A stretch of DNA of 64,000 bases. It comes from Amoebophrya sp. A120 (lineage: Eukaryota > Protista > Dinoflagellata). Shown piece by piece: positions 1-64,000 of this stretch. Below the pieces are notes generated by a model. The model was not told the origin of the DNA. It worked only from the letters and a program-made list of their open reading frames with translations, and did not search any database. Each line of letters starts with the position of its first letter. Positions within the stretch are counted from its first letter, which is position 1. A program made the position numbers and the translations under genes. Location: the NCBI GenBank assembly GCA_905178155.1, contig CAJINV010000020.1:558001-622000 (forward strand), written 5' to 3'.

Positions 1-1433
1 AACGTATCTTCACGCAGGACTCGCCGCGGAGCGCCGGGGCCGCCGCCGCGGGAAGCTGGATTGGGTATAAGTACTTACTCTCACAGCTCGTATGGGTGGC
101 AATTTAAATTCTGCAACACATTGCGGTTCGTCGTCTATCGAACCTTCTATGTACAATTTCAGGATCAGGTCACCTGTACTCGAGGCCGTGTTCTTGTTTT
201 GTTGATAAGTAGTTTTTGGAAGCCACGTTGTCGTTGAAACACGATTTGACGAAAACGAAAATCGAAACCAATTCTCCAGTTCTGTGGCTGGCGCGAGCCT
301 TGGCGCGAGCGTTGCCTCCACGACCGGCACAGCGGCCGCCGCGAGCTACAGCGCCACCGCGTCCGCGCACTTTGGGGCCGCGGCGTACACTATCGAATGC
401 AAATATGTCTGGGTCTGGAAACTTGTGATGCTGAATGGTCGTGATTGACTGCGCCTCAAAGTGCAGTATAGCATGACAAATGTTTCATACGCTTTGTCAT
501 GCGCAGAACGCATTACAAACTGCGCTTTCATTGCATGACGAAATTCTGGCGCTTTATTTGCTGCTTATGCATTACAGATTTTCATTACGAATGCGAAACA
601 TCCAATACAGGTTCAACCTTTCCAGACCCAGACACACTTGCATTTGATATACACGCTCGGGGCGGTGGAGGGCGGGTCGATCGCCACCAGCATCTATCAA
701 ATGCAAATATCCCTGGATCATGTCTGGAAGGATGCAACTTGTCATGCTGTCCTTGGATTCGAAAAAAATCTGTATTGCGTAAGCACCAAAGAGGCATCTA
801 CTTCATGAGGCCCTGCCTCAGAAAATCTGTGATGCTACCGCATACATCACAGACGTCATGGGTCATACAAAAGCTGCATGACAAGTCTTCCCATCTTCCA
901 GACCTCCAGACACATTTGCATTTGATAGCATCCTTGCCGCCACGTCGCTGGGGGCGGCCGGGGCCGTGGTTGGCGCGGGTATCCTCTGCAAAAGTAGCGT
1001 ATTCGTATTGCAATCATGCATTACAAATCTTTTTGTTAAGTCAAATCCGCATTACAAATTTTCTTTCTCATGCGGAGGGAATTTGTAATGCATTTATACG
1101 AGTACGATACTTTTGCAGTGTATAGCGGGCGCGGCGCTGCTGATCAAGAACCACCTGCTCGCGCACGAGGCCGGTAAAGCAGACCGGACGAGCCAGTACT
1201 TGGAATCCGCTCTACACCTGTTCGAGGACTCCCAGGATCCGTTTGGGCACCTGGACGTCATCCTGGGCTTCGACGATGTGGAAGAAAATCGTCAAGCCGC
1301 GCCGAACACCAGTACAACTAGCGAAACTTCCGCTCCTCCGCAAGTGGCGCTGGGCTGGTACGCGATACCCATTTCGCCCGCGGAAGCTGAACGGAGCCAC
1401 AACACAGGGGCAGCTGCACAACCTGGTGGTTGA
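1..1433 (+). CDS. 5'-partial gene, Ala/Gly-rich hydrophobic (glycine-zipper-like) protein; exons ~1-64, 280-390, 655-694, 933-979, 1130-1433
   Basis: One GT-AG intron (65-279) and three introners. The spliced frame is open: ...SWIGSVAGASLG...AAAYTLGAVEGGSIATSILAATSLGAAGAVVGAGAALLIKNH...PGG*. Confidence 0.7.
391..649. mobile_element. Introner element, family A
   Basis: TIR tatcgaatgcaaatatgtctgggtctggaa ... ttccagacccagacacacttgcatttgata; direct repeat tacac at 386-390 and 650-654. Confidence 0.9.
695..927. mobile_element. Introner element, family A
   Basis: TIR tatcaaatgcaaat ... atttgcatttgata; direct repeat gcatc at 690-694 and 928-932. Confidence 0.9.
980..1124. mobile_element. Introner element, family B
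   Basis: TIR tatcctctgcaaaagtagcgtattcgta ... tacgagtacgatacttttgcagtgtata; direct repeat gcggg. Confidence 0.9.
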
Positions 1434-30242: not shown

Positions 30243-33200
30243 ATGCCGCTCGCCGACGCCCCCAGGGAGTTTAAATCTGGCACACTTGTGCTGCGCAACA
30301 AGCGAGACGAAAAGAATGGCAAGGTGGACAACTGGCCGGCGACACACGGTGTGCGCGGGTACGACTTCCTCCAGGTGTACGATAAAACGCCTTGTGTGGT
30401 GAGAATGGTGGTGAACAAACAGATATGCATTGCAAAAGTAATGTCGTACTCGTATAATATGTAAATTGCACCTATGGCTATGCAGCATGACAAATCGAAA
30501 TCTATTTCCTTTCCTGAATATATAGCATTTGAATTTTCTCCTGCTAGTGCGATACTTTTGCAACGCATACCAGACGAAGCTTCCACTCGAAGTCGGGCCA
30601 TGGCACGAGGGGAAAGGACTAAAAGGACGATCTACGTCATTGAAGGACAATATATTTAAAGAATGGGGAAGATACATAAAGAATGGTGTAGGGTTGACAA
30701 ATGGGAAATGGTCATTGGATCAACCTTCCACACTATTCCGAATGCGCAAAGAGACGCAACGGTACGTCCGAGAGAAGTTTCCACACCCGTTCCGGTTATC
30801 CTGTGCAAAAGTATCGCATTCGTATAAATGCAAGTCTTGCATTACAAATTTTTTTCTCAAGGTAAATCTGCATTACAAATTTCAATTCTCATGCTGAGGG
30901 AATTTGTCATGCATTTATACGTCGATCGCAAGAGAACTACGTGAATCGTATGGAAAGTTAAAGAGCGTAAAAGTTAAAAAGTTATGTTGTAGTTCTTGTC
31001 GTAGCGTCTTTTCGTATCTCTCAGTTCTCACTTCGGTCTACGTTGCAGAATCTATCATAAAAATTGGCTCGGTAAAAGATGTACGTGAAACCAAAATGGA
31101 AAAGAAAGCAAATTTCAATTGAGCAAACATGTTGAAATCGGTTCGTATCGTGTGCTCGTAGTCCGGAAAGGTAGTTCGTCTCGTCTCTTAGGAATTTTTT
31201 ACTTATTCACACCTCTGCCAGGTGTCAGCCCTGTGCCTACCAAATGGTAGGGGGAGGGCTGTTCTGTTTTTTGCGCTTTTTTGGGCATCATCTGTTGAAG
31301 TCTGCGATGGGAGTTTCCGCGGGTTTAGGTGAGCTAGCACCCACGGAGCTTTACCCGCTGGACCAGGATTCTCCCATGCGAGCACCTTCTTCGTTCCTCC
31401 AGGCTTTTCTCGGCGTCCTTGGTCGGACGCCCCTGTTCTTGGTTGAAGTTGGACCCCGTGTGGCGGTAGCAGCTTCTTCTTTGCCCTGCCTTAGTAGCTC
31501 GAGCCTCGTTGCACTTCGTAAACTCTGCTCTTCGTAAAAGTGAAGTCGTCTGGTGCTTTGTTGTCTTACCTTAGTACGGTAACCCCTTTCCCCGCCTGTG
31601 TAAGAAGCATTAGCTTCCCATGTCCCCTTGCGTTTCTCGGCTAAACAGTTATTCGGTTATTCTTCTTCTAATGTTTACTTCAGTTGCTTTTCATTTATCA
31701 GCTTTAGTAGGGCATGATGCCAAAAGGGACGGACTGCCCTTAGAGCTCCCATGTCATGAAGAGTGCGCTATTGCTGTGGTGGCAGTAATTAAGCGGCTCT
31801 ACATTCTTCCTTTCAAAAAATCACAGGGATTAAGTGAAAGCATTTCGTTCGTCGTACCCAAAGTCTCTCGACCTGTCGTACCGTTACACGTTTAAAGTTG
31901 CGTCATTTTTAGTACCGTGAAAATCGTAGACCGTGACAAAGGGCAACTAAAGAATTATATCTAAAAAGGACCACTGCGAACAAAGCGTTAAAGGGTAAAT
32001 TGCATTTGCCGGGTCGTACAAGCACCGACGGGTCGTATACACACCGGGTCAAAACGGGTGGTATGTAAGCCGAATGAGACGTGGATTTGGAACAACATCT
32101 ACCGCCTACGACCATACCAAGAGCAGTTTTTTCCACGACAAGTATCATCACGCCACAAATGACATCTACGGAACCACATGTGACTGCTGCGGCACAGCAT
32201 CATTTCGACGCACCGAACCAAGCACAGGACGATATTTCTAACCCCTTACCGATCCTACCTTCACCACCACCTGCACCTTATCTACATCGGGAAAGCCCGC
32301 GCTGTCTCCCTCTCACAACACAGGAGCAACCTCGGTCGACTAGGCAGTGCTCCGGAGTCCGGGCCTCAGTTTCAAATAACGGATTGAGATCTTCCTGGGC
32401 ACCGCTTGATTCTCTTCGCACGGATTGGAAAAAAGGTTCTTGCCAAGATGGCGATGGACAGGTAACAACACCTCGTCCACAACCTGCGACACGCCTACCG
32501 ATTCGCTTCTTGTCATCGGATTCACAAGTGGATCGTTGCAGCTGGAGTACAGGAAAGGAGTATTGGGCGTTCGGTTGGGGTACTCTCCGCTGGCATTACG
32601 ACTTCTACCGCGGGACGTGGCGGTACGAAGACTCGATTGATCGGGCTAACCACGAGCTACACTACTGGGAGGATGCGGGCTTTGTGGTCGAAAACGGAGA
32701 AATTCGGCCACGCTCGTAGTTCTACGTTTTACAAACTCTAGCTGGTTTACAGCTCAAAATTAGATAGAAGTGCGCTAACACTGGGCTTTAAAATGGTTTC
32801 ATCCGACATGCGACCCCAGCCTGACACTCAGCGCCAAAACCAGATTACGTCTAGCCCGAATGCTGCAGACTTCCCAGAGGTTATTAGCATTACACCTTCG
32901 TCCTCCGCATTACAGCTTCTGAAAAAACCATCCAGACCGCTGCTGCCAAACCCTCCTCGCGAAAACTTCCTCCACGCCGTGAGCAACTCGATAGTAGCTG
33001 TAGCGGAATACTGTGATGTGCAACAATTGTACACGAGCGACATCTTCGCCATTAAAACTGAGTACAAGAGCGAAGAGCTGCCGGTGGCCTGGATGGCGGA
33101 TTTCACGATACCGCTTCAGATGAAGTATGCGTCATTCAAAAAACACGTCCTCGACCCGAATGCTTGGTGCTCTGATCGCCTTAGGCCCGACGTTTTTACT

Positions 33201-36200
33201 CTCGACAGAGAGCACATGCTCCAGTGCTGTCGAGCGGCCAAGGGAAACCCGTGCAGCCTTTGCTCGTCGGCCTCCCCTGATCGTTTTCTACAAGTAAACG
33301 GCAAGCTACTAGAAGTCCGGGCAAGAGAACAAAGGTCGTGTGACGAGGCCGGTAACACTAGCCTCATCTACCTGCGCCGGTGCAGTTGCGGGTTGACGTA
33401 CGTAGGTAAGGCCCATACGGGTGCGGGGGCCGGAACGCGCTTCCACGCACACGCCAATAACGGTGAACGGGTAACGCTGGAATCCGAGGGTCGCCCGATG
33501 TACGATCATCAGAGGTTGTACTTGAGCCATGCGGTTACCACGGACATCAGTCGGAGAGGCCCGGGGCGGTGAAGTCGACTAAATATTTTCTATATTTTGC
33601 GGGATTTTTGAAAAATGAAAAGAACGGGGAGTGCGGCGCTGCCTGCGGCGCCACGGTTGGCAGGGACGCCATGTGTCCGGGCACCGCGGGGGTTTGGGCG
33701 CATTGCCTCCCGTCCGTGTGCCCGGCGGCAGTGTTTCCCCCCTGGTGTTCTCGCGTTGCCTTGCGAAAAAATTAAAATTTAAAAATTGGCAGCGTTTTGA
33801 GTGGTATTGCGTGTGCTAGGAGTTTCCCAATCCCGCAGCCTCGTGGGTTCCTCTGTGTTCATTTCCGATCGCACACACCGGGGAAGGTGTGCGTGGTGGG
33901 TTGTCCGTATTCTGCCTCCCGGGCGTGAGGTTGTTTCCAACATCGCGCTGACTTTCGTGAGTCAGTGCGATTTTGGGAAGGGATTGGGATATGTTTGAGT
34001 TGTCCGTCGGAAGGAAAGGTCGTGGGGCTTCGCGACCGACCTTCGGCAAGATCCGCGGTCGGGGTCGCGCAACGACCTTTCCTGCGGGAAAACCACCTTC
34101 CGGACCAACTCCGTTTTGATTTAGAGTCACCGGGGGGTGCATTTTCGGGAACGATTCCCGTGTTTTCGGGAATTTCGCCCGGTTTCGGGGTGGTCTGCTA
34201 AACCGTTTTCCCGCACGGTTTAGCAGGCTCATTTAGCATGCTGATTTAGCATGCGATTTAGCATGCTGATTTAGCATGCCAGATAGAGGGGTATTTAGAG
34301 CCCCCATTTAGCACCCCCATTTAGCACCCCCATTTAGAGGGGTGCATTTAGAGCCCCCATTTAGCACCCCCATTTAGAAGGGCTCGATTTAGAGCCCCCA
34401 TTTAGCACCCCCATTTAGAAGGGGTCGATTTAGAGCCCCCATTTAGCACCCCCATTTAGAGTGCCATTTAGAGCGCTTTTGGGCAGGTGCCCACCTCGTC
34501 TGCGAAATCGGCCCCATGATTTGCTTCTCCCCACCCCGCGACGCTTCTCCGGGTTTTTCCCCACCCGCAGTGCGTAGGGGGCCGCGCCGGAGTTTCTCCT
34601 ATGTCTTCTCTTCCTCGGTCCCACACCATTTGCCTCTGTGTTCCCCATTTCGTCTTTGCCTTTTTCCTTCTCGCCCCTTTTCAATTGAGGCGCCGTCCGC
34701 ATATTCCCCGGGAAGGCCGTTTTTGAAAAATCCCGCAAAATTTAGAAGCGATTTAGCAGCCACCACCGCCCCGGCCCCTCCGCCTGACGGACATCTTGTT
34801 CAGCATGGACAAAGTGGAAGCAAACCGCACGGCTACGCTTCCAGACGGCTCCACGATGTCACAAATAGATGCGTGGGAGTCGTTTTGGATAATCGTACTC
34901 CGGACGTATCTACCATGGGGTTTCAACTTAGAATTCAAGGACGTCACACATCCTTCGGCCCCTCGACGCCGCCCGAACCCCGAAGACTGCTCCAGCATGT
35001 GCCGACTTCTCTCCGAACAAGGGGACGTACTAAAAGTGCAGCGGCTACAACGTAACCTCAAGCGCTACGTGGCAGCGAAGCACGCGGGCAACCCAAACTT
35101 CTTCCCGACTGCTTTTCCTCCTTCCCGACACGGTGCAGTTGGTTCCGACCAGCATGACACCCACCAGAAGCGGTCACAGAGCGGACTCCTCGCGGACGCA
35201 TCGGGAATCCAGTGCACACAAGATGTAGAATGCACACTCCCCGGCGTGCAGTGCACGCAAGATGAGGGATTCCTACGCCCGAGCATACCGTGCCCGCAAG
35301 AGGAAGGGATTCTTTGTACGCAAGAGCGCGACGATCTGCTACCGGTTAGCTCCCATCCGTTGAAAACTGATGGCCAGTTGGTGGAGTTCTTTGTCGGCAA
35401 ACGCAAAGCACAGCGTGTAGTTTTGGAGGCCCCGGATCTGAAGCGTCGCAGTATAGTTCCTGCGGCCCATCCTCCTCGTTTAAGACCTTGCAGATTGTCT
35501 GACCGGCCTCGATTAGTAGAACTTCCAGCTACAGCGAAGACTCCGTTGCTACCAGTAGACCCGGCAGTAACTCCATCCCGCAAGAGCAGCATGGTTCAAG
35601 AACTTTTTCGCAAAAAGTTCAGTATGGTACGGGGAAGCGAAGATCGGAAAGCGGCGCAAAGCATGATTTTCACCCCGATGGCAAAAGAGTCTCCCCGCCC
35701 AGACCAGTCTAGCGCTCTAGCGGTCGCTTCTTCCACTAACCTCCTTCGCAAGCACCCAGACGAGGCATACACCACGAAACTTCCCAGCAACAGCTCCGAA
35801 GTTAAGAAGATACTTCTTGCAATAGTCTGGCTATTTTTTGCACTGGACCCCCCGCAGGACTTCGCGTCATCAGGACGGTGGCTGCCGGTGAAGTCGTGGC
35901 ATATCGGGGCTGCCAAGTTCAATACAATCTCTTGGCTCCTGAAGATTATTGCGGGCTGCAGCAAACAACTTCTCCGAGCGCTACGCCTCCACCTAACGAC
36001 GGCTTACGTGCTTCCGCAGCAGCAGTTGTTTTTGCTTCAGGAATTAGTAGAAAGCCGATTACGACTTACGAAAGTCGGTGGGGAAAAACAGTCGCGGGAC
36101 GGTAAAAAAGCTGTTATATTCTTCTACCACAACAAAGTCGTCGACGTGCTCAACTTGCGGTCCACCTTCCGCCAGGTGTTGAATGATAGATTCCTCGCAT

Positions 36201-39200
36201 TTACATACGGACCGCCCGTATGTTTAACTACATTCAACCTCCGACTCAAGGCCATCCCTCATGCATGCAGCGAGCTGAAGTGCGCGTGTGCGGATTATCG
36301 CCGCTACTTCACAGACGGCTGTACATGGGGAGGGCATCTTGCCATGCCAGCGACGGCAGACAACATACAGCTGCTGTGTGGACCGACCCTGGACTCTGTA
36401 GCGTCATCCAAGGTCGCGCTATTAATGAGACCAAAATTCCGGGTGGAGCAAAAGTTTTCGGCCACTAAACTGCTTGAACGCGTCAACATCGAAGAGCAAG
36501 AGTTGATTCAAGATGTAAGACACTTCTTCTGGTACAACACGGTGCCAGATGGTGCAGACAAGCAGGAAGAAGTGGACTGGAACACCGCTGACGGTTCTGC
36601 CGCTCCCGTTCCCGTCCCGGATGCTAATGGTAACGTGTACGACCGTGCTGCTAGCAACACTTTTGAGTGGGGCAAGTTCTCTACGGCATTCGAGATCGTT
36701 CGCAGTTTGCAACAGCTTTTTGTGTTCGGGTACTACGATAAGGCGACATCAACTACCTGGATGATGTGTAAAAGCCTTTACACGGCATTACTGATGGAGG
36801 ATTTGGGGTTAGCCGGCCGCGGGTCTTTCCCAACAGGCACCAGCACGGACTACCACCGGGCGGATTTCGTGCCGGCACCTACGGCACCCTACCAGGATCC
36901 GGCCTTGACCCAAGCTAATCCGATCCTACCTGCGCCCGCTCCTCCATCGGCGTTATCCCCGGGTAACACACCACCCCGAGATGCACTGCCAAGCGCTCAC
37001 TTGATACCAGCTTCCCAGCCTAGTCATGACCGGGGGCAGAACATCCTCCTGGACCCGCCCCGCGGCCTATTCCATGGCACTAGCACCGCGGCACCCTCCC
37101 GCTCGCGAGTTTCTGGCACGCAGTTACAGAAGCCGACCATCAAGCCACCGAGAAGTGGAGCGTCAGTAGTGGTGAGTAATTTTCGTAGTGCCGATTGTCC
37201 GTCTTCGCGGCAGCCTCGCGCGGGTAGTTCTGAAGTAGTGTCGCCTCCGATACTCGATGTCGTTCCGCCCACCTTCTTATCCCCGCAAGCGGCGCCCGGT
37301 AACAGCAGTTCCTCGTCCTCTTACGAACCCCAAGCTAATAGGGGCCTGTATCTAAAACGGAACAAGTACGGGTTGCCGGCATCATCTTCAGATAAAATCG
37401 AAGCACTAGACAGGGATCTAATAGACGAAACGAAAAAGGAACTACATGGCGTGCGGAACCTGATGCAGTTCGTGCTCCGGAAAAGCGAGAAGCTCTTGCA
37501 ACTGGGTAAAGTAAAGTCAACGGACCAGCCCCACGTTTTGTTGCAGGCGAAAATCAAGCTACATGCGGAGATAGATGCGGCCATCGAGATGGCACAAGAC
37601 GAAATGGAAAAAAGCAGGAAGCACACCAAATTACAACAGCAACTAGAACGTGCTGAAGCGGACCGGAAAGCAGTGCAGGCAGAGTTAAAGCAGTGTCTTC
37701 CGAAGTCCTCCGTACCGGTGGCGGCCTCGGTTAACACCCACCATGTCCGCCCGTTTCCCTCGGCACTGTCGGGCCGGCGGCAGTCGTTGCTGTGGAAACT
37801 CAGCACGCACGCCGGATGGAGAGTCATCTCCAGAAGCCTTTTAAAAGGAGTAAAAGGAGTGGGCTGTGCTCTAGATATGCAGCGCGCGGCTAATAGCGGT
37901 CTCGAAAAATTAGCTGTGTTCGACTTGCGGGCGGGGATTACACCTGGCATCACCTTGAAGGCGCTGGACTCGGTCCCGCAAGCCGGCAGCATCGTGGCCT
38001 TCCAGCATCAGAAACTGTATACGTCCACGGCGATTTTGTCCAAGGCCCCAATCCTACAGATGCAGGCTGGTCCAGAGAAATCACAGTGGTTGTCCCCGAT
38101 CTTCGTTTTGTCCAATGCCGCCGTGCAGATACTTTTCCGGGACGAAACGAAGAGGAACTTCTTACAATGGACCGCCGAATCAATTAACTTGGGTCCGTTC
38201 TCTGCCAAGTTAAAAGAGAACCCGCTGCCGGTCACAGTCCTCGATGCCTGGGTCAGCCGACATGAAGTCGCGGAGTTACTGCAAATGGGGATGAACCCGC
38301 ACAACGACCTAAATCCGCCCGCAAACAAAATGTCTAGTTTGCTGCTGGATGTGGACCCCCTTACTGCCTTCGAGATGTGGCTGGACGACGACACGGAGCA
38401 GGGCGAAAACCCACCGCCGGGGGACCTACTCGGGGCAGTTCCCGATCCGAACAGCAACTCCAGTCCAGATGTTCTCCAGCCGGGTCCACTGTTCGAGACG
38501 GCGGTCAACCTGCTGGACGTAGCGGCAGGGGTTGCAGAGGAGCCAGAAGATATGGATTTTCAACCGGAGCAGCAACTTTTGAATAGTATGGAAGTCGCAT
38601 CACAGCATGACTCTTCCTCACGAAATTTACCTAGCACTATTTTGGCAGCCGACGGCAAGATCAACATGGGGCGCTGGGTCGAAGGCCAACATGCTGCACT
38701 AAACATACCGTCGGGCTCTGCCGTGTCAGCCCGATCTGCCCGACCACCAGGTCCCCGCACTCCGTCACCTCGCTCAAGTACGTCTTCATCAAGTTCCGAC
38801 ACTAGCTCCAGCTCGTCTTCAACGCCGTTGTTGTCGGACTCGGAGTCGGACTGGTCACAGCAACCGCCACCGGTGGTTTCTGATCTGGCCAACTTAGCTA
38901 CGCAGATTCCAAACTTAAACTCGAAAGGAAATTGGATTCAACAGGGGGTAGACCATCGGGGTTGTAAAGTTCGACCGTTGCTACCAATTTGGCAGGCACG
39001 GCGCAATTTTTCGTTTTTAAAGTCCGAGTTTCCACCTGCTGATCAGTCGCTGCACGAAGTGTACAGGCCGACAACAGCGGGGCAGATTGATGAAATTGTC
39101 GAGCAGCTTAGCAGCTTCGCCCCGGCTCTGCATGCCCGGGTCAAGCAGAAACAAGCTTCAGCTCACCCGGCGTACTATGCAGTCATCAAGGGCCACAAGG

Positions 39201-42200
39201 CTCCGGCCTACAAGATGCGACTCATCGCAGCAGCTACGGACAAAACGGTCTTGCACGCTCCTGGTAAAGTCTTACACTTGATTCTATCGGCCGTGATGCA
39301 AGAATTCAAATCCCGGGTGTGGCCGGGAGCTTGGAGCGTCGAGAGTTCAGAAGAGGCGCTGTCCCGGGTTACCAAGGGCGGTTTCGCAGCTTTTGACGGT
39401 TATGATTTTGAAAGGTTGTACACGGGCCTCGAACACTCCTTCCTGTGCCACAACCTCCATCAGCTCAATTGCTGCGTCTTCCAGGCCGGGGGCTTCCAAT
39501 CTGTTGTCTTGGGGTACGACCGGAACCGCAAAGGCCCGAATAAAGAATTTGCTTTTCTTTCACGAGACGCTCCTACGTCCTCTTCTTGGTCTCTGTCCGA
39601 TATCGATTCCTTGGTCCGTTGGTGCTGTGCCAGTTGTTACATCGGCATCGCTGACTTGCTATTTTTGCAAGTCCGGGGGATGCCAATGGGCATTACCCCG
39701 GCCCCGCGGATGGCGGATGGCGGGTTGTCTTGGAGTGAATACGTCTTTATCACTTCTCCGGCGGGACAACAGTACCGGTTTTTGCAAATCCTTCGTTACC
39801 TCGACGATTTGCTGTCTCCTATCAGGCTGCCACTCCACCTGATTTATCCCAGAGCGTTAGCGTGCAAGCCTGAAACCCTCGGCACCGTCACGACAACCTT
39901 CTTGGACTTTTTCCTCGACGCTTCCATTCCAAAACGGTTGTTGTACTGTATGTACGACAAAACGAGAACTTTTCCTTTTTATTTGTCTAAGTTTTCCGCT
40001 GCTGCCAGTGCGGTGCACCCCGAAACGCACCAATCGGCTTTTAGTAGTGCGGTCATCAGGGCTTATAAAAGGAACTATCTAGTGGTTCACTTCCTGCGGG
40101 ATGTTGTCGAACTTCTAGTTAGGTTCACGTTGAACGGCACTTACCAAAGGTCGTTCCCGGTCAAGGCGTGCCGGCTGCTGGTGTCCCGCCACGAAATTCC
40201 AAAGTGGTTCACCACCGAAAAACTGGTGTCCACCATGGGGGATTGGATGAAGCAGATGCAGACTGAAACTCAGGCGATTCTGCACCCGTCTTGGCAACAG
40301 TTTCGGCAGAACAGTTCCGGTCCGGTTGCTCCGGCGACAGTCAGGTAAACAGTAATAAACAAGTAATCAGGACAAGGTCGAGCTTTTCCCTCTTTCGAAG
40401 ATTGAAGCACGCTTTCGAAGATTAACGCACGGTTGCAGATAGTGAACAAAACTCGCGATCTTATCCTTCGGGGAAGACAGGGTCTGAAGAAGCTCGATAA
40501 GGGTGAAAGTTGGTTTAAAGTAAAGCTTAAAGTTCAAACTACAAAGCACAAACTTGAGCTTCTACCTCCTGTAGAGTAGGCACCAGTCTAGACTAAGTAA
40601 AGTTAGCACAGAACTCGAGTAGTTCACAGTGCCAAAGGTAAAGTGTGTCTTTTGTTGACTTCCTGTTTTGTTGATGACTATCCTCGTTTTTACTTCCCAA
40701 TATTAAAGTAGATAAAGTAAAATCTTAGTAAGCAGGACAGCGTCAAACTTCTTCACAATTTTTACTGGTAGAGCCGGGAAAGGATTTGGAGGTAGGCGCC
40801 CTGCTACCAACAGGCAGCAGGTCAAAAACAAAAAAATATTCCGATAGCGAAAGACGCCACGGGAAACCTCAGGTAATCCATCCGTCGTAGATGCAATGCA
40901 GTGCTCCCGATCGTCCCCATCCTTGTTGTATTTTGTGTACGAGTCTTGGTAAACACGAATGTCACGTCCAAATAGTTCAAATTAAACTTGTTTTCACCGT
41001 ATAATTATACCTTATTACAGAAGCCAAAGAGTAAGCCATACACTTTCGTTATTATTTTTTCCTTTACACAAGCAGCTAAACACACTTTTTCAGGTTCGTT
41101 TAACTGTCCGTCCGCGAGGCCAAAGCCGCATTTTCAAGCAATTAACATTTACGAAATCACTAGTTTTATCTCCGTCTAGTTACTTCTTTTCCAGCTTTTG
41201 ACGCCTACACATTCATAATTAACTTTTTTGCGTTACGCTGAAGACATAAAGTTCACTGTGCCTCTCGTGAAGTTGGCGACAAACAACTAATAGCTTAACA
41301 CTGTACATATTTGACTATAGAACCAGGAGGAGCGTCGTTGAAGAAAACAATACAAAGCACGCTGGTCACCATTAAAGTTCTTGCCAAGGAACTAGTGTTG
41401 TCGAGGTCAATGCCGTAGAGTATCGAAATTCGCAGAGGATGGGCCGTGGCACGAAAGGGAAATAATCGCTAGTAGTCAGGATGTCGGTGGGTCGTGTAAA
41501 CTGATCTATCTTCGTCTATGATTATTATTATTGACAACCTAGCCTTCAAATAAAGAACAACGGGTACTAAATTACATCCACCGCTACGCTGTAGTAGATA
41601 AAAGCTATGGCTAGGCACCTTTTTACACAAGGTCGATACCGCGCGAAAGTATTAAGGTTTTCGGACTAAGAGATCTAGACTGGGCAGTAGCAGAAGAGCG
41701 TTATTTTTTAAGGACTAATTGCCAAAAGTTGTTTTTACACGGTCCCGTCGCCGTCTCGAGTATCGGGCATTTCGGAAGATTACGTGGCGTGGCAATCACC
41801 GCCTCCCCACAGACACCGCAGACCGGCCCCGCTGTTAGCCGAGCTTGGACCGGATCCGACGCTACTTCGAGCCCTACGTTTCCCAGAACAGTTACCCGGC
41901 AGAATCTCGCTCGACACAGCCTACACTCACGACATCCCACTTCCCTTCCACTCGCACGAATCCGGCCACGGGTGGTTCTCCGAAAGTAATTTTTACGGTA
42001 AACACCTGTTTTCAACCCCTCCGGAGGTACGTATCCGTAGGGAAGTTTTACGACAAGAACAGGCGAGGGTGGGGGCGTTTAACAAAGGACTAGCATCTCC
42101 GGACTGGTCAATCAGCTCCCCGTACCGAGATTACCAAAGCGGGGTGAAACCAGTACAAGCGCGTGCAGTTCGATTGACTACGGGTACTTCTAACCCGTTT

Positions 42201-44980
42201 TTACCGTCGTCACCAGAGAGGTTGCTAGTCCGCAGGGGTTGGTCAACCATCCAGATAGAAAAGGAGTGCTTCGGGTCCCCGTGCGCATTACGGGCAACGT
42301 CCTCGAAACAAAGAAGATAACCGCGCATCATCACTTTCTCAACACGATGGCACTTGCCCATAATAACGGGTCCATCTTCGCATTCAACCTGCAAGAGTGC
42401 CGGAGGATGCTAGCAGTGACGAACAACGCAGCTCCTGACACGCCTAGGCCACCGGTGCAGCTGCAGCCAGATTCAGCTTGCTCCTACCAATCCGCAAGAG
42501 AGTCACGGATCAGCAGCGAACGGTCGTTCGGAGAAAATGTCTGCGTGGTGTTGGATTTTGATAGGGACTTTCCTGTGCCGAACTACAACAATCCCGTGCG
42601 GTTCATCCCCAACAACCCGTTTGCTTGGGAGGGCCTTGCGGGTGCCCGCATGGACGAGGGAGTGGCGGAGCAGGATATAGTTTTACAAACGGCCCGCTCC
42701 CCGTTCTCCGATATCGAGCTGCTGGATTTTCCACCAAGTCCGCCATTTGGTCACAGCCCTTGCAGATACTTCGCCTACCTGCAACAGTTCCAAGAGGACA
42801 TGGACAACTTGCGGGCAGAACCAGAACCAGAACCGTGCAACCCCTTCCTGATGTCGCCCAGATCGCCGCTGCTTACAAATCCGTCGATCTTCCAAATCGA
42901 GCAGATCGAGCTCGATACTACTGGATCGTTGCCGTATACCCGCTACCCGAACCCCAGCCCCGAGAGCCTGAGCACATACGGCCTGTATGATCTCGACCTC
43001 CCTGTCCATCACCAGTTGGGCTCACCGCACCAGGCAACGCTGCAAATCAACTTTTCACAGGATTGCCAGCAGTTCCTGCAGTTCCATGACAACTTGGACA
43101 CCAACAACATTTTACGCCAAAACCGTATGCACTTGACGTTCTTGCAGGGTGACAATGCAGGCACGAACCCGAATCGCATTAGGGGGGACAACCAGGGGGA
43201 AAACCAGAGACGCACTTTCTCCCCATCCCCAACCCCATCGGAACTCTCACTGATGGCGGCCGGGCGCCTGTAAGGAAGAATAAATTACACGGATGCCCTT
43301 ATACCGGCTTTCCTCCACAAGCACCGGCGCGACACGACATCTTAACCGAAAGCGGCTCCATCTGCTACATCAACGCCTACACTTGAACTACTTCATCATC
43401 TACTTGTTACCATCAGTTTACAGCAAACGAACTACCACGGTATCAACCAGCAGTACAACGACACGCATATTCCGATACGACATCCAGAACGACTTCAAGT
43501 AGCATTTCTAAAACGACTTCGACCGACGAACCAAACACGACCATCATGATCAACAGCGGCATCTAATAGCATCTTCACTTTCTTCTGGTTTTCTTTTTTC
43601 ATTTTTCATTCTGAATCTGTATTGGCAATGGTAACTGCATATCTGACATCAGAACTGACAACGATAAATGCACAGTATAATGCGTACTTTCTATGTATAC
43701 TAAGGTCTTGGATATTACTGCCCAGAATGAAAAAAGAACAAAGAAAGTGATATTAGTTTCTTGGTTTTGTTCGCAGTCCTATCTATGTGGTCCTTCATTG
43801 CATGAGAGTTAACATGCTTTGAAATAACAATAAAAAGCCCTCCAGGTTGAAGAGAACTACGTGAATCGTATGGAAAGTTAAAGAGCGTAAAAGTTAAAAA
43901 GTTATGTTGTAGTTCTTGTCGTAGCGTCTTTTCGTATCTCTCAGTTCTCACTTCGGTCTACGTTGCAGAATCTATCATAAAAATTGGCTCGGTAAAAGAT
44001 GTACGTGAAACCAAAATGGAAAAGAAAGCAAATTTCAATTGAGCAAACATGTTGAAATCGGTTCGTGTCGTGTGCTCGTAGTCCGGAAAGGTAGTTCGTC
44101 TCGTCTCTTAGGAATTTTTTACTTATTCACACCTCTGCCAGGTGTCAGCCCTGTGCCTACCAAATGGTAGGGGGAGGGCTGTTCTGTTTTTTGCGCTTTT
44201 TTGGGCATCATCTGTTGAAGTCTGCGATGGGAGTTTCCGCGGGTTTAGGTGAGCTAGCACCCACGGAGCTTTACCCGCTGGACCAGGATTCTCCCATGCG
44301 AGCACCTTCTTCGTTCCTCCAGGCTTTTCTCGGCGTCCTTGGTCGGACGCCCCTGTTCTTGGTTGAAGTTGGACCCCGTGTGGCGGTAGCAGCTTCTTCT
44401 TTGCCCTGCCTTAGTAGCTCGAGCCTCGTTGCACTTCGTAAACTCTGCTCTTCGTAAAAGTGAAGTCGTCTGGTGCTTTGTTGTCTTACCTTAGTACGGT
44501 AACCCCTTTCCCCGCCTGTGTAAGAAGCATTAGCTTCCCATGTCCCCTTGCGTTTCTCGGCTAAACAGTTATTCGGTTATTCTTCTTCTAATGTTTACTT
44601 CAGTTGCTTTTCATTTATCAGTTTTAGTAGGGCATGATGCCAAAAGGGACGGACTGCCCTTAGAACTCCCATGTCATGCATTTATACGAGTGCGGTACTT
44701 TTGCAGTTCATACCGGTACCCGTTCCACGACATCACCCAGGATGAAAACTATCTGAAGGAGCAGCTCCGCGGCCAGGACCAGGACTGTTTCTACAGGCTG
44801 GGATACCACCTCCAGTACCAGTACGTGGTTTCGGCTGCGGAGGACCCGGAGCAAAACCTTGTGCAACGGTGGAGCGACTACCACGAAGTAGATGGGGGGT
44901 TTGGCCCGGGCGAGATGGTCCAGGTTCGAGATTTCGACATGTTCAGGTGGGCATTCGGGACGCGGTCCGGATGGGTATAA
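30243..44980 (+). CDS. Hypothetical protein whose second intron is 13.9 kb; exons 30243-30423, 30575-30796, 44718-44980
   Basis: Spliced frame is open: MPLADAPREF...VVNKQ|TKLPLEV...FPHPFR|YPFHDITQDEN...TRSGWV*. Confidence 0.75.
30424..30569. mobile_element. Introner element, family B
   Basis: tatgcattgcaaaagta ... tacttttgcaacgcata; repeat acaga/ccaga. Confidence 0.87.
30930..31758 (+). repeat. 5' pseudo-LTR of the Penelope-like element
   Basis: Matches 43850-44678; three substitutions seen by eye (near 31147, 31702 and 31745). Confidence 0.95.
32159..32719 (+). CDS. Possible accessory ORF upstream of the EN-RT ORF
   Basis: Co-oriented open frame, Pro-rich N-terminus and Trp/Tyr-rich C-terminus; no family recognised. 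Confidence 0.4.
   Translation: MTSTEPHVTAAAQHHFDAPNQAQDDISNPLPILPSPPPAPYLHRESPRCLPLTTQEQPRSTRQCSGVRASVSNNGLRSSWAPLDSLRTDWKKGSCQDGDGQVTTPRPQPATRLPIRFLSSDSQVDRCSWSTGKEYWAFGWGTLRWHYDFYRGTWRYEDSIDRANHELHYWEDAGFVVENGEIRPRS
32793..40348 (+). CDS. GIY-YIG endonuclease-reverse transcriptase polyprotein (~2100 aa), interrupted by MITE 33548-34786
   Basis: EN: LIYLRRCSCGLTYVGK...TRFHAH, completed after the MITE by ESFWIIVLRTYLPWGFN. CxC..GH and YDKA..MCKSLY motifs. RT: YAVIKGHK..MRLIAA, DFERLYT, QVRGMPMG, RYLDD, TFLD, YDK. Confidence 0.88.
33548..34786. mobile_element. Non-autonomous hAT-type TIR element (MITE)
   Basis: TIR cagtcggagaggcccggggcggtg ... caccgccccggcccctccgcctg; 8-bp TSD acggacat at 33540-33547 and 34787-34794. 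Confidence 0.9.
34219..34472. repeat. ATTTAG-based minisatellite inside the MITE
   Basis: Repeating atttagcatgctg, then atttagagccccc/atttagcaccccc units. Confidence 0.9.
42239..43273 (+). CDS. Possible accessory ORF downstream of the RT, inside the retroelement
   Basis: 344-codon co-oriented frame (first ATG ~42347), Pro/Gln/Asn-rich; no family recognised. Confidence 0.5.
   Translation: MVNHPDRKGVLRVPVRITGNVLETKKITAHHHFLNTMALAHNNGSIFAFNLQECRRMLAVTNNAAPDTPRPPVQLQPDSACSYQSARESRISSERSFGENVCVVLDFDRDFPVPNYNNPVRFIPNNPFAWEGLAGARMDEGVAEQDIVLQTARSPFSDIELLDFPPSPPFGHSPCRYFAYLQQFQEDMDNLRAEPEPEPCNPFLMSPRSPLLTNPSIFQIEQIELDTTGSLPYTRYPNPSPESLSTYGLYDLDLPVHHQLGSPHQATLQINFSQDCQQFLQFHDNLDTNNILRQNRMHLTFLQGDNAGTNPNRIRGDNQGENQRRTFSPSPTPSELSLMAAGRL
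43850..44678 (+). repeat. 3' pseudo-LTR of the Penelope-like element
   Basis: Direct repeat of 30930-31758 (offset 12920). Confidence 0.95.
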
Positions 44981-45534
44981 CAAATGAAAATAAATATAGG
45001 ACGCTCCATCACAGCCTCTGTTCAAGTAGAACATCAAAGCAAGGGCAAGAACTTCTGACTCTTGTTAATTGAGATTGAAAGTAAAATTATCCAAAAACAC
45101 TTGCCTTCTTGTCCATCTTCATCCTTGCTTCTTCGGGTTCTAGGCTACTACATTTTTCTGATCTTCATGATGATGATTTGTACCAAAATTTACAACCAAA
45201 AAAGCTGTCGGACAGCGAGTACCAAATCGTGGAATTGTATGAAAACGCCGAACGCTATCACAATCGTGTGTCATAGCGATCGCATTCCGAATAGACTGAG
45301 ATGAGAAAGCGTCCCCTTGAATGTGGTCAGTTTTATTTCATGCCTGCATGAAGAACATGAAGATCAACACATTACTTGTGTGCCTCGGTGTGACGCGTTG
45401 AGCAAAAACTTGTACCGCAGAAGATTGCTGCACTTCTACTTATAGCCGTGTCTTTATGTTTGTGAATGTGATGCAAAGTTGCGCCGCAATGTGAATAAAC
45501 TAACAGTGGTAGCGTCTATTGTCGTTGCGATAAA

Positions 45535-51667: not shown

Positions 51668-54600
51668 ATGTCCTCTACGTCGACTTTCGACCAAGGCGTG
51701 GTCCCGGGCAGCGGGGCGACCCAGACGACGTCCTCAGGCCCTCCTCCATCGGGAGGCGGTGGTGGAGCGACTCCGCCCGGAAACTCCAATTCCTTCCAAG
51801 GCGAGCAGCCGACACTGTTGACAACCCCTGGAACCTATGCATTGCAAATATGTCGGGGTCTGGAAACTTGTGATGCAAGGAAGGGAATGGTGCGCACATT
51901 GTAATGCGCTGCCCAGCATGACAGGTTTTTCCGTGGTTCTGAGTTGCGTAATCCGCATTAGAAACTGCGTTTTTGCGTGGCAGACCAGAGGAGCTCTTCG
52001 CGGCCATGCAGTACAAAGTTCAGAGTCATGCCAGACTAGCATGATAAATCTCGCAGTCTCCCAGACCAAGACACATTTGCAATGCATACAACATCGGCGC
52101 CGTCGAGAAGGTCCATGTTGGGGGACCCGACCCGGTCGGGCCACCCAGGGCACTTACTGCGGGACAGCAGTAATGCGATGGACAATGACAAAGATTTTCT
52201 GCGCAGATCACGCTCCTCCGCCAGAAACCTGGCAGTCGTCCATGTCATGTCGAATGCCAGCGAGGGTGTCGGCAGTCTGCCCAGCTTTCAGCCCGGGTTG
52301 TTAAACAGCACCACGGTGGGGGACCATCATCATCTTCACGCAGGAGACCACTTGCATAGTCCTCCAGTGAAATTGACGCCGCGGGAGCGCATGCTGGCCG
52401 TGATGGACGGGAAGGTGGTGCAGACGGTGATGACGTTGCTCACGGTTTTTGCCCTGTATGGTGACGATTTGAGGATGAAGTTTTTCTTTCTCCGGCACGA
52501 CATTGGGTTCTACGTGCTGTACACAATCACCTTTTTTCTTTTTTCCGCGGAACTGACCATTTTCTCCGTCTGCAAAGAGGATTACAAGTACAGAGAAAAT
52601 GTTTTTGTTTCATTCTGATTTTGCTGTTGAAGATGTTGGACCATTATGATTTTCGCGAAGCTCAAGAATTTTTTCATCAGAAGATTGATCATTCCGATGC
52701 CGATCTCTCATACATTGTCACGATGAAAAATTTCTTCACAAAAACGTAAATCAAAAGGTACTCTTTCTTCTTCTGGCTCGACATGGTCGCGTCCATGAGT
52801 ATCCTCCCCGACATTAAATGGGTAATGGATTTCGTTTCCGGCCTTTTTGACGACAGCCAGGGCGGGGCCGGCAGCGGGCAAACGGGCGTCGCGCGCGCGG
52901 GGCGCGCAAGTCGGGCCGGGACCAGGGCGGGAAGGATTGTTCGTATCCCACGAAAAAAGTGTTACAGTTACACATTTGCTGTAGCTTCAGCATCACAAGT
53001 TTTCTCTGCATGACAAAGAAAACTTGCAATGCAAAGATCATAAGGGAAAACGGGAAGAAAACGAGGCTCCAAAGCATTTCCTGCATGAGAAAGGTTGTCT
53101 GTGTTGCGGATCTTGCAACACAATGTGTAACTGTAACACTTTTTTCTTCCCATAGTTCGGTTGATTCGTCTAGTGCGGTTACTCCGCGTAGTGAACATTG
53201 CGAAATTCTTTTCGAAGGAGGAGCAATCCGCTTTGGATAAGATGAAGTCCAGCAAGGGCGGCATCACCCGCGAGGGGATGCAGCACAGCATGAGCAAAAA
53301 TGCTCAGACTAGTAGTCCCGGGTCGAATAGCAATGAGAAGCGCGTGGAGGCGAGCCGGTTGGGGAAGATTCTGTCCGAGCAGACCACGCGTACCGTGATT
53401 CTGGGCGTGCTTTGCATGATGCTGGTCCTACCCATGATCGAGTTGGAAGAGCCGAACCGTACCCCGACCTTCGGGCTGGAGCAAATTTTCTGGATCGGCC
53501 GCAGTTCCTGCAGTCCGTACGCGGATTTCGTTTCCGCGGGCCTGCAAAGTGACGCCGCTTTGCAGTGCAGCACGACCATACCCACCGCGACGGCCAACGC
53601 CACCGTGTCCGCCTCCACCTGGATGGCGGTGGAGGGGTTCAGCTATCTGCTCTACGCGTACACAGAGCAATCTAGGTTCTATTTGGGCGAGCTCACGGCC
53701 GCGCTGGCCCGACCCATTTTGTACATGGCGGTGCCGAACACGCTCGGCGCGCCGATCCGCTCGCTCGACTACGTGGTGACGAAAAGGTGCGACAACAACG
53801 GAAATCTAGAGTACCCCTTTCTCGGCTGGCAAGAGGACTTTGACGCGCAGGGGGGATGGGTAAGGAGAGACACTGCAGCATAAGAATAGACACTGGGGCT
53901 TCTGGCATAGAATTTCAGTTAGAAACGACATTGAGGACTACATCATTGATGACGCTGAAGTTATGAATATGTTGCTTTCAAAATGAGCAAAAAATAAACT
54001 TCACACTTGAACTCAAAGACCGCCGATTGCCAAGCGGCGCGCGCCCAGGGTAAGTGCTGCTTATCAAATGTAAAAGTGTCTGGGTCTGGAAGAATTCACG
54101 TTTGTCATGCTTGTCTGGCATGACTCTTAAATCTGTCATGCACGTTACCCAAGAGCTCCGTTTTTCTGTGCTGCAGAAGCGCAGTTTGTCATGTAGACTA
54201 GGCAGCACCTAGGAGCTCAGAAACTTCCTTGTCATGCTGAGCCAGCATTTGTAGCCTCATCATGAGACGCCACCCAGCATCACAAGTTTCCAGACCCAGA
54301 CATTTTTACATTTGATACTGCTGGCAGAGGCACAAATACTGTGGTATCGGGGAGGACCAGGAGAACTGTCCCTGGCGGGATACAGAAATGGAGGACGTTA
54401 TGGATGAGTCAGGATCGAAATCGACAAAATCGAAAAATTTGTGATGCATGAAATGTAGGCCACTGAAGGCCTGTATTGGGGAGCAGGCAATAAACGAGAC
54501 CGATTGTAAGCCTGTTTAGGGGTAATATACAATGTGCTGCCAGACGAGTAGCACGACAGGAGCAGTCTCATTTGCCCAAACAGCATGACAGACTGGCTTT

Positions 54601-56482
54601 GGGTGCTCCCGATAAAACTTGTCATGCGCCCCTTGGAAACTGAGACTCCAACTGCCATCGATTTTGTGCATCGCAAATTTTCCGACTTTGACAATTTTGA
54701 TTCTGACACTTCCATAGCCGTGGCTTTTTCGCCGGCGGAAACCTGCCCAGACGGAAGCTCCGAAAAACCGACGGAGCTGAGCTCCTCCTGCACCCACGTG
54801 ACGGTCTATGCGAAGGTTATATGCATTGCAAAAGCATCGCACTCGTCGTCGTCGCTTGATTTGTAGTAGTGGTGCAGGAGCATGACAAATCTGGCTTTCA
54901 ACTTGAATCTGCATGACAAGCTCGAGTTCAGCTTTTGCGGTGAATAATTGCTGAACCGGAGCAAGACGGAAACGACCGCGGAGTACTCCATGATCCAAAC
55001 GACGTTCATTGTCTTTCTCCTTTATGCAATGCAAAAGCATTGTACTAGTACAAATCGCATTTACAAATTTTCTCAAGAAGAAAAATGGAATTTGTAATGC
55101 TGTTTTACCTTTGGAGGAAGATTTGTCATGCATATTTGCTGCAATTAGTACGAGTACGATACTGTTGCACAGCATATCCTCGGCATTGGGGCGATGATGT
55201 TCTCGAAAGACACCCAGCAACTGGTCATTTCCCCGATCGAGAAGATGGTGAACATAGTGAAACAACTCGCCGATGTATTCAAGAAAAAAACGTTGTTAGT
55301 GTAAATTTGTGATGCTCAACATGCAAGATGATTGCTTCTGTCATGCTTGGCATGCGTCGCAGGGTCCATTAAAGGCCTTTTTCACGTACTATCTGCGCAT
55401 GACAGGTTTTTGCTGTCATGTCAGACAAACTTGCAATGCTGTTCCTCCAAAAAAGTTACACCTACAATGTTTTTTTCTTTGATACGATGACCCCTTGTCC
55501 AAGCCGAGCACGCAATCTGGCGGCTACATGGATGACGGGGAAGACCACACCTCCGGAGCTGCACATGCCGCTGCGGCGCAGAAGAAGCAGCAGTCGTCCG
55601 GGAATTCCCAGCTTGAAACTAACATGCTGGAGACGACGATCCTGAAGATCGGAGGGCTCCTCCAGGTCGGGTTCGGGGAGGCGGGCGCGCAGATCATAGG
55701 GAAAAACATGAGCAGCCAGGATGGGGAACTCAACATCCTGATTCCGGGACGGATATGCAGATTGCAAGAGCATCGCTTAATCGTACTGTACGTAGAGTTT
55801 GCATCATCTTCACAGACGTTTGTGAATAGGAAAGCTACGGAATTTGTGATGCGGAATCGCGTATAAAGAGCACATTTGTCTTGCCAGAGCGCACAATCCA
55901 ATTTATATATAAAACTACCAATGCGCTACTTTTGCAATGCATAGCGGAAGATCTACGGCATTTTTGGTTTTTGCTTCATCCGCGAATTCACCGACACGAC
56001 CGAGTGCTTGCTGGAGGAGGTGATGGTGTTCGTCTATCCTCTGTGCAAAAGTAGTGTATAGGTGCTAATTGGAATTTTTGAAGGACAGCATGACAGATCT
56101 GGTTTCCTTCGTTTTTTCAGAATTACAAATCGAATTTTTCCTACTTTTGAAAAATTGTGATGTTGCAGCTCGCAGTAGTACCCGAGACAACTTTTACTTT
56201 TGCAATGCATATCGTGAACAAGATCGCCCGCATCGTCCACATCTGCGTTCACGAGTGGGCGGGCGCGGCGAACAAAAACATCGGGGACTCCTTTTTGTTA
56301 ACCTGGATCGTGAACGATCTCGAGGAGCAGAAACAGATGGCGCGGTACGGCTACGACAAGAACGAAAAGATGCAGGACTTGAGCGACAAAGCCTTGATTT
56401 CCTTCGTCAAAGTCATGGCGGAACTCCGACGAGCCTCCGACCTACGCGCCTACACCAGCCACCCCAAGATTCAGCAGAAGTT
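51668..56482 (+). CDS. Ion-channel-type (AC-alpha-like) class III nucleotidyl cyclase, 3'-partial
   Basis: Spliced motifs ALYGDD, FFFWLD, RAGRASRAGTRAGRIVRLIRLVRLLR (S4), PIEKMV, KIGGLLQVGFGEAGAQII, IPGRK..IFGFC, ANKNIGD. Nine complete introners and GT-AG introns 52588-52757 and 53860-54018. Remainder lies beyond the insertion starting at 56483. Confidence 0.88.
51836..52088. mobile_element. Introner element, family A
   Basis: tatgcattgcaaatatgtcggggtctgg ... ccagaccaagacacatttgcaatgcata; repeat gaacc/caaca. Confidence 0.87.
52944..53154. mobile_element. Introner element, family E, splitting the S4 helix
   Basis: tatcccacgaaaaaagtgttacagttacacatt ... aatgtgtaactgtaacacttttttcttcccata; direct repeat gttcg. 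Confidence 0.92.
54062..54317. mobile_element. Introner element, family A
   Basis: tatcaaatgtaaaagtgtctgggtctggaa ... ttccagacccagacatttttacatttgata; direct repeat ctgct. Confidence 0.92.
54399..54716. mobile_element. Introner element, family D
   Basis: tatggatgagtcaggatcgaaatcg ... gattctgacacttccata; repeat gacgt/gccgt. Confidence 0.9.
54820..54946. mobile_element. Introner element, family B (decayed)
   Basis: tatgcattgcaaaagc ... gcttttgcggtgaata; flanks ggtta/attgc; frame restored by removing element + 5 nt. Confidence 0.72.
55023..55176. mobile_element. Introner element, family B
   Basis: tatgcaatgcaaaagcattgtac ... gtacgatactgttgcacagcata; repeat tcctt/tcctc. Confidence 0.88.
55276..55484. 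mobile_element. Introner element, family E
   Basis: tattcaagaaaaaaacgttgt ... acaatgtttttttctttgata; direct repeat cgatg. Confidence 0.9.
55754..55943. mobile_element. Introner element, family B (diverged)
   Basis: tatgcagattgcaagagcatcgc ... gcgctacttttgcaatgcata; repeat acgga/gcgga. Confidence 0.85.
56035..56211. mobile_element. Introner element, family B (diverged)
   Basis: tatcctctgtgcaaaagta ... tacttttgcaatgcata; repeat tcgtc/tcgtg. Confidence 0.85.
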
Positions 56483-57204
56483 TATGGCGCTCTCAAACGT
56501 TACATTCTCAACTGTTACATGATTTTTGGGGAGAAATATGCCCTAAGGAATATCGAAATCACAAATTTCATTTTTTTATAGTTTCAATTGGTGCTTTCTC
56601 TCAAGTCTGTCATGCTCGCGCTCATTGTTGAAACGAAGAAGGAAAGCGAGGAGAGGAGTAGGTAGGCAAAATAGGACTCAGAGGGCGCTGGCGCGCAGGG
56701 CGTTTGCGTTTCTACGAACGTTGCCCATGGTTCGTCTTGACACTGCAGCTCTGCATCCTTTGAAAAAGAATGGGGCGCCCCAAAACTCAGAAAAAAAAAG
56801 CCCTTCTCTGCACCATGCGAGAAACCCTGCGCGCCATTTGAGGAATATGTGCTAGCGCGCACAGGCCGGCAGGACAGATCGAAGAGGAGAGACGAGGAGA
56901 GAGCAGGCCGAAGTAAAGAAACAATCGCTACGGACATGGGCTAGTCAAGGCGGATGGGAGGCGAGGCCCCCCGCGAAAGCGGGTTGGTTAGCAGAAAAAG
57001 GCCCAGCAGCGCCACACCCGCGTGCAGGGGTGCGGCACTAAGAGATGTACACACCCAGACCCACCCCGAAGGGGCCGATGCCCCGCACTGTCAGTGGTGG
57101 CGCAGCGAGTTTACGAGCAGCCCCGGCGCCCCGGCAGCGGCGGGGAGAAGCGCGAACCAAAACAGGCGTGGCCGCCCGGGGGGCCGAGGCTTCAAAAAAG
57201 CTGT

Positions 57205-59705: not shown

Positions 59706-60168
59706 AAAGCTGTGCCCGGCCCCGAAAAATGTCCCGACTGAAATCTTCGCTCAAAACCGGAAGAATAGAAGTTGTCTCTCAGCACACAGACGCGAGCACT
59801 TGCTGTCACATGCACATCATTAACAGCGCCACACATGCGCAAACGGGTCGGGAAGAATGCAGCGAAGAAATGCAAGCCCTTGAACAGGTCGAGGCCCGAA
59901 GCTCATGCGCTGTTCTTTCAGCTTGTGCGTCAAGGTTTTTTTTTTTTCAAAGCAAAGAAGATTCACAGTCATGCATCTTGGAGTCGTTCCACGACATGCA
60001 TCTTGGTGGTTCAGTAGTTTTCTCAAAGGTTTAGGCTTGGTCTCAAGCTTTGTAAAATTCCGTGTTTGGTGATAGTGGTAGAAGTCGTTGCCCGACCCCG
60101 AGCATCAGTAATCCCTGGCCCAGTTTTAAAAATCCCGCGTTACAATCCAGCTTTCAGCCATCGTTTAC

Positions 60169-63584: not shown

Positions 63585-63800
63585 GCCGAAAACTTGCCGA
63601 AAACTTTCCCCCGAACTTTCCCGAAACTTTCCCGCTTCGGGATCATTTTCGGACTCGAAAACTTTTGGCTGACTTTTCAACTCCCGGTCTGTAACTTTTG
63701 GTCGACTTTTCAACGGGAGAATTTTTCGGGAAGGTTTCGCGGAAGGTTTTCGCCGACTTTTCGGGAAAGTTCGGGGGAAAGTTTTCGGCAAGTTCTCGGC
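63585..63800. repeat. 42-bp inverted repeat built from ccgaaaactt-like units
   Basis: 63585-63626 is the reverse complement of 63759-63800 with one mismatch. Confidence 0.85.
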
Positions 63801-64000
63801 AAAGTTTCCGGCAGAGTTTTCGGTAGAGGGGCGGAAAAGTTTCGCCGCCCGGCGCCTGCACTTTGTTCCTGCCCGCCAGCCGGGCCGCCCTCGGGCGGCT
63901 GCCTTGCGCCCGAAAAGAGGCAGGCACAGCCCCCCGGCAGGCACGCCTGCGGTTATTGCGCACGTAGCCAGGCAAGCGGCCGGCCCCGCCCCGGCGGGCG

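Follow-up and report, generated by a model that had tools for sequence, protein, structure and literature searches.

Can a retroelement home to mobile introns (introners) through a sequence written into its own 3' end? The question is raised by a locus in the window (the whole stretch of 64,000 nt of DNA analysed here), where a Penelope-like element (PLE) lies within an introner at a heptamer, TGTCATG, that also forms the last seven bases of the element. Our best explanation is that of a Naiad-type PLE inserted in an introner, whose family homes to TGTCATG|C by nicking and RNA-end pairing, a composite reading to which we give about an even chance. Within it, motif-directed insertion of the family is likely, and pairing as the priming step, once motif-directed insertion is granted, is moderately favoured. 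Papers cited by PMC identifier were available in part, and what is said of them is limited to those parts.

A retroelement within an introner

The host introner, its sister and the two ends of the insertion are arranged as follows:

980..1124, + strand: sister introner without insertion, with a TGTAATG variant at 1084
30792..30796, + strand: CCGGT, the 5-nt direct repeat to the left of the host introner, where the host reading frame is open
30797..30921, + strand: left part of the host introner, with the left terminal inverted repeat and internal TGT[A/C]ATGC motifs
30905..30921, + strand: left copy of the duplicated target, a 17-mer inside the left part of the host introner
30922..30929, + strand: filler of 8 nt at the 5' junction
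30930..31758, + strand: 5' pseudo-LTR (pLTR1) of the PLE, with TGTCATG at its end and the body start AAGAG directly after it
43850..44678, + strand: 3' pseudo-LTR (pLTR2), ending in TGTCATG, its final ~65 nt being the part conserved among relatives
44672..44688, + strand: second (right) copy of the duplicated target, which shares 7 nt at its start with the element end
44679..44712, + strand: right end of the host introner, with the right terminal inverted repeat
44713..44973, + strand: host exon downstream, with the right CCGGT repeat at its start and a GT..AG intron after it

Without the element, the host introner measures 149 nt (30797-30921 plus 44689-44712); its termini are complementary at 32 of 40 positions, CCGGT stands on both sides, and precise removal of the introner leaves 158 codons of uninterrupted host frame. 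The joint of the downstream GT..AG intron (44973 to 45204) was seen in run X3 only. Contigs of the public DNA run X1 that leave the reference at 44712-44714 (140+58+11) have mixed flanks, corresponding to many introner copies. The sister introner is 84% identical to the host introner over 129 nt and agrees with the target site at 16 of 17 positions; the empty site that an earlier note on this DNA had placed there is confirmed as a sister without insertion, but it reads TGTAATG and not TGTCATG. The host introner is similar to the Amoebophrya introners of PMC7789003 in its inverted repeats, its 5-nt direct repeat and its non-canonical ends for precise removal, whereas a shared internal TGT[C/A/G]ATGC motif, a nested retroelement or a PLE is not described in the available part of that paper. 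Some Amoebophrya introners have been attributed to non-LTR retrotransposons (PMC12130899, in its available part).

The PLE is 13.7 kb long, with a body of 12.1 kb and pseudo-LTRs of 829 nt that differ from each other by 3 mismatches. As the earlier note had reported, both pseudo-LTRs have the same end, CCCATGTCATG terminating each of them, and an 8-nt filler is present at the 5' junction. An exact second copy of the 17-mer at 30905-30921 lies at 44672-44688, again as reported, and the match extends neither way. However, because TGTCATG belongs to both element and target, only 10 nt of the duplication are certain, with 17 nt as the upper limit; the heptamer shared by element and target stands. 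The heptamer is encoded by the element, since tandem pLTR/body junctions end in TGTCATG too; the junction of the pLTR end with the body start (TGTCATG|AAGAG) is found in 3 X1 contigs, one of which is that of the window copy (agreement 0.94). A random breakpoint would meet TGTCATG with a probability of ~5e-4, given 46 sites in 43,233 nt of motif-rich host sequence, both strands.

The exact window element appears to be single-copy, because the depth of its body equals that of the single-copy flank (41.9 vs 42.5). A 45-nt contig identical to the end of the window copy plus C has ~2x single-copy depth, a hint of a second identical element end elsewhere.

The window copy has none of the optional 30-40 bp tail of Penelope-like elements, and a stable 3' hairpin at the element end is not supported (z -0.09). 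A hammerhead in the pLTR was rejected: no Rfam hammerhead family matched up to E 5, and no core motif was found in the pLTR on either strand. The TG...CA ends might suggest an LTR retroelement, but this reading was dropped in view of the PLE-type enzymes. Derivation of the filler from a spliced leader was likewise rejected, since its resemblance to the leader is limited to CAAG. The 7-mer TGAAGAG straddles both pLTR boundaries, at the start of pLTR2 (43848-43854) and at the end of pLTR1 (31757-31763), and may be a template-switch mark or an RNA start.

The enzymes of the element and its relatives

The body of the element contains the following features:

32742..33572, + strand: 5' part of the endonuclease, with a Cys-rich motif at 33225, a GIY-YIG core with two internal Cys at 33363, and the catalytic R and H
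33548..34786, + strand: inner inverted-repeat element of 1239 nt (CAG...CTG), with arms of ~70 nt and an internal minisatellite, splitting the GIY-YIG
34795..40348, + strand: rest of the ORF, with the endonuclease E and N motifs at 34874-34927, CxC at 36281, DKA at 36737, and the reverse transcriptase (RT)
42194..43273, + strand: open frame of 359 codons in the 3' region of the element, its nature unassigned by search

The endonuclease frame has its first ATG at 32793, and the RT core occupies 39056-40345 with YLDD at 39797. Pfam gave no match for the ORFs of the element. A HMMER search with the last 430 residues of the ORF retrieved 426 relatives at E up to 0.001. We scanned 20 of these: GIY-YIG lies ahead of the RT region in all 13 that have at least 900 residues, and RVT_1 was detected in 14 of the 20, mostly below the curated cut-off. 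A profile built from 43 near-full-length homologues (880-1110 residues) aligns along the ORF over GIY-YIG, DKA and RT core (E 1.6e-77), CxC precedes DKA, and the endonuclease motif comes before the RT motif in 38 of the 43. The spacing of the RT3-RT4 fingers is similar to that of this homologue profile, the one comparison made. The endonuclease carries a CCHH arrangement with the Cys pair inside GIY-YIG (LIYLRRCSCGLTYVG, then RFHAH and YDHQ), and an upstream Cys motif, CX7CxxC, whose spacing is longer than the CX2-5CxxC of Naiads.

The window element thus combines a PLE-type RT, a GIY-YIG endonuclease, pseudo-LTRs and the variable target duplication by which Penelope-like elements are recognized. 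Among 10 hits that were looked up, 5 have Amoebophrya names, the top three included. A quick tree with 43 RT cores (search hits only, most of them unnamed, 3 short rows omitted) places the window RT in a set of six rows that includes all 3 Amoebophrya rows (SH-aLRT 99), on long branches. Together with the introner architecture, which agrees with PMC7789003, these relationships suggest an Amoebophrya-like host. On its sequence features, we file the element as a putative member of the Naiad/Chlamys clade, and not as a Naiad in the strict sense.

A word-index search for the RT among longer proteins and a search of PDB sequences gave no match, and a structure predicted from the single sequence of the endonuclease piece had too low a confidence to be informative (pLDDT 31.5). 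Metagenome contigs held 0 matches to the 24-nt end pattern and no RT relative, and no RT relative was found in viral contigs. The 359-codon frame (42194-43273) had neither a Pfam match nor a homologue in sequence search.

Between DKA and the RT core, the ORF carries an in-frame low-complexity insert of ~745 aa (36821-39055); no repeats of at least 8 nt bounding it were found. The relative P0002 likewise has a long low-complexity stretch ahead of its RT core.

An inner element splits the endonuclease

The inner inverted-repeat element is flanked by an 8-nt duplication (at 33540 and 34787). One DNA contig of 1862 nt that starts at the equivalent of 31715 ends at 33576, and another of 9553 nt that ends at 44310 starts at 34758. 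Because DNA contigs break at both of its ends, these ends are likely shared with other loci, and the inner element is likely a repeated (multicopy) family. Its CAG ends and 8-nt duplication presumably recall hAT elements. The GIY-YIG profile scores 42 bits when the inner element is left out, and 23 + 8 bits as two pieces in the actual DNA; precise removal, or a splice from GT 33569 to AG 34803, would each give one open frame. The inner element is younger than the retroelement copy, and since it splits the endonuclease, this copy is disabled or splicing-dependent.

The target motif is concentrated in introners

We scanned the 43,233 nt of host sequence in the window, both strands, against a set of 23 introners, consisting of 19 inverted-repeat elements found by script (mostly TAT...ATA-bounded) and 4 found by eye. 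Host sequence contains 41 TGTCATGC sites, and 37 of these are in the 23 elements, which make up 13% of host DNA; the 19 script-found elements (11% of host DNA) hold 32 of the 41. The degenerate form TGT[ACG]ATGC occurs at 70 sites in ~86,000 strand-positions, with 56 in the 19 elements and 64 in the 23. Where TGTCATG occurs in host DNA, C is the next base at 41 of 46 sites. The motif is present in both orientations and in several families of introners, which are distributed across 391-55485, have TAT...ATA ends and often a 5-nt direct repeat. It is a candidate for a common binding site of a transposase or a splicing factor.

The motif is concentrated in introners, and therefore anything that targets it would mostly land in introners. 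Judging from these sequences, it would be more accurate to see the target as a motif that several families of introners have in common than as a single family.

Other junctions of the family lie at the motif, with one exception

Public contigs were aligned on 44596-44692, giving 22 contigs in X1; run X2 comes from the same sample and is not independent. The counts that follow are of contigs and not of mapped insertions, and concern right junctions only. Summed X1 contig depth is 593 in bin 44676-44679 and 100 in bin 44680-44683. Because depth drops across 44679/44680, the relatives share one fixed 3' end, and the variable 3' truncation points that the earlier note had named as speaking against targeting are not what X1 displays. 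Relatives keep the heptamer as their very last bases despite up to 11 differences in the last 67.

The earlier note had also proposed tabulating the flanks. All 7 non-self flank junctions listed in X1 read TGTCATG and then C, with contigs leaving the reference after 44679 (5), 44680 (1) and 44691 (1). The pattern is broken by one X4 contig (36 nt, 4 differences) that leaves at TGTCAT|TG, without GC; a contig sharing its upstream flank is also present in X1. As only right junctions are seen, the C after TGTCATG could be the element's own.

Three C-flanks are readable singly: two are introners in register, from two families, and one is unplaced. The first belongs to a relative with 5 differences in 47 nt; its sequence continues into a terminal repeat from the window copy's own introner family, beyond which a different exon follows. 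Since the aligned stretch included 14 nt of introner, flanks of that family were more likely to be recovered. The second, from X4, aligns with the introner at 694-928 of the window, keeping register with that introner's motif at 828, and includes an exact 15-mer at 840-854 (0.07 matches expected). It is probably among the five X1 contigs that diverge after 44679, whose consensus has CATCACA at the same offset. The third found no placement in window introners (3 matches at 3 mismatches, 0.86 expected). That relatives insert at this same motif makes it likely that introners are what the family aims at. The earlier idea of homing to introners gains support from the TGTCATG-C junctions of relatives and from two of three flanks, but has to be reworded in that the target is a motif of several families.

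How the element may find its target

According to the explanation that we prefer, insertion would begin with an endonuclease nick in the bottom strand, placed at the motif's left edge, after which the UGUCAUG end of the RNA would pair with the cut target, forming a 7-bp RNA-DNA hybrid that would prime the telomerase-like RT. A second nick, on the top strand 17 nt away, would lead to the duplication, and the 8-nt filler would arise during joining of the 5' junction.

The junction data fit equally well a mechanism based on recognition of DNA by protein alone, in which GIY-YIG and zinc fingers nick TGTCATG|C without any pairing and the duplication is 10 nt; it predicts the same sequence at the window site, and the heptamer of the element would then represent a site of self-insertion or a remnant picked up from an earlier target. 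PAc, the only full-length PLE system in vitro, makes its nick where its ORF meets the pLTR, and its reverse transcription begins on the RNA at a position without homology to the cut DNA (PMC11167929, in its available part), and Cys motifs have been proposed to steer targeting in Naiads and Chlamys (PMC8557442, in part). Because PAc starts without homology, the earlier note went too far in calling priming through complementarity of 3' end and target established where PLEs are concerned. However, recognition alone needs a separate reason for a heptamer held at the last base in diverged relatives, and we consider it possible but unlikely.

Accounts with less targeting fare worse. Loose nicking, chance microhomology and selection against copies in exons might leave survivors in introners with no active homing, a scenario favoured by the fact that introners form the bulk of the dispensable DNA and contain the majority of motifs, and by a family that is low-copy, with one exception contig and one unplaced flank. 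Survival would explain introners but not an exact register, and two non-self flanks are in register although TGT[ACG]ATGC takes up 70 of ~86,000 strand-positions, which makes this scenario improbable. It would be more surprising still if the match were incidental to a single site, the true element end being TGTCATGC and the flanks random. The data for relatives consist of right junctions only and are compatible with C as a 1-nt tail, yet the left junction of the window copy has TGTCATGC in its target and two of the three readable flanks are introners in register, so that we find this reading hardly credible.

Possible removal from host mRNA

Both arms of the introner are intact, and the enlarged introner would still leave the host mRNA. 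That the insertion is spliced out with its introner is, in our estimate, only marginally favoured. The RNA status of run X3 is a guess, and the element body is uncovered in it. An X3 contig (44389-44712) bridges the junction between pLTR and introner with no differences, and another X3 contig starts exactly at 44713, where DNA contigs continue unbroken. This boundary hints at a precisely spliced mRNA; an empty allele in that sample would fit equally. The evidence around it is a 60-nt piece over 44712/44713 with 30 letters per side, whose upstream partner lies outside the aligned stretch. The notion of introners as a safe site rests on this X3 boundary and stays a hint.

The contig 44389-44712 spans the 3' portion of pLTR2 and continues to the end of the introner. 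It may come from transcription that leaves the pLTR in the direction of the host exon; contigs reveal neither its strand nor its start.

We regard as doubtful the fuller picture of three nested layers, in which the RNA end guides homing, the element is spliced out with its introner, and a spliceable inverted-repeat element lies within the endonuclease. If true, a retroelement would carry the address of its target in the end of its RNA. For the question of how Amoebophrya removes its non-canonical introns, the growth of this introner from 149 nt to 13.9 kb, with its arms intact, provides a natural test of hairpin-defined splicing.

Comparison with known systems

In the available part of PMC8557442, Naiad PLEs share with the window element an N-terminal GIY-YIG with two internal Cys, CxC and DKA, as well as pseudo-LTRs in partial tandem and the absence of a canonical hammerhead. 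Naiads are described there from animal hosts, with lengths of 3.4-4.4 kb and a preference for (TA)n. The window element differs from them by its alveolate-type host, its 12-kb body, its 745-aa insert and its non-repetitive heptamer target.

Chlamys, including Chlamys-9_cRei, and the spike-moss PLE-X have the same domain order and sequence-directed insertion (PMC8557442; PMC9977147, both in part). In the available part of PMC8557442, Chlamys endonucleases are without the internal Cys pair, whereas the window element has that of its CCHH. Since the (C)n target of Chlamys-9 is located in introns, so is every new insertion, and PLE-X families insert at one 28S rDNA site (PMC8557442; PMC9977147, same parts). 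Targets of Chlamys and PLE-X are therefore microsatellites or rDNA, while that of the window element is a mobile intron.

Element ends that match the target and aid attachment are likewise described, in the available part of PMC8557442, for the endonuclease-less PLEs Athena and Coprina. These target the telomeric overhang and have no endonuclease, whereas the window site is internal and carries a duplication.

Transposons that prefer another transposon offer a further parallel. One of them, Tx1L, carries an AP endonuclease. Tx1L in Tx1D (Xenopus) and Tourist in Tourist (PMC6719617, in its available part) are, like the window element, cases of a transposon that prefers another, non-coding transposon. 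Tx1L is a non-LTR element with one host family, whereas the window PLE has a motif of several families, and its host elements are introns.

Sequence-directed PLEs and transposon-targeting transposons are already known, and the probable homing of a PLE to an introner motif is the new part; a full-text literature search, which covered few subscription papers, returned nothing on introner targeting or on PLEs in Amoebophrya. If true, it would extend endonuclease-bearing PLEs to alveolates, and introners would be the niche in which a second parasite lives. TGT[C/A/G]ATGC also emerges as a motif that several introner families have in common. Target choice and priming in these relatives of telomerase become testable here, as a unique heptamer exposes both junctions, which microsatellite targets hide.

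Other features of the window

The region 57000-64000 is GC-rich, has few TGTCATGC motifs and is possibly another mobile element; long inverted repeats lie at 57199-57271/59639-59711 and at 63584-63626/63759-63801. The interval 52040-56900 contains an introner-riddled gene, the pieces of which gave no Pfam match; we take it to resemble alveolate channel-adenylyl cyclase fusions. Further host genes, at 2087-5203 and 9036-10436, encode SNF2 helicase and histone deacetylase domains.
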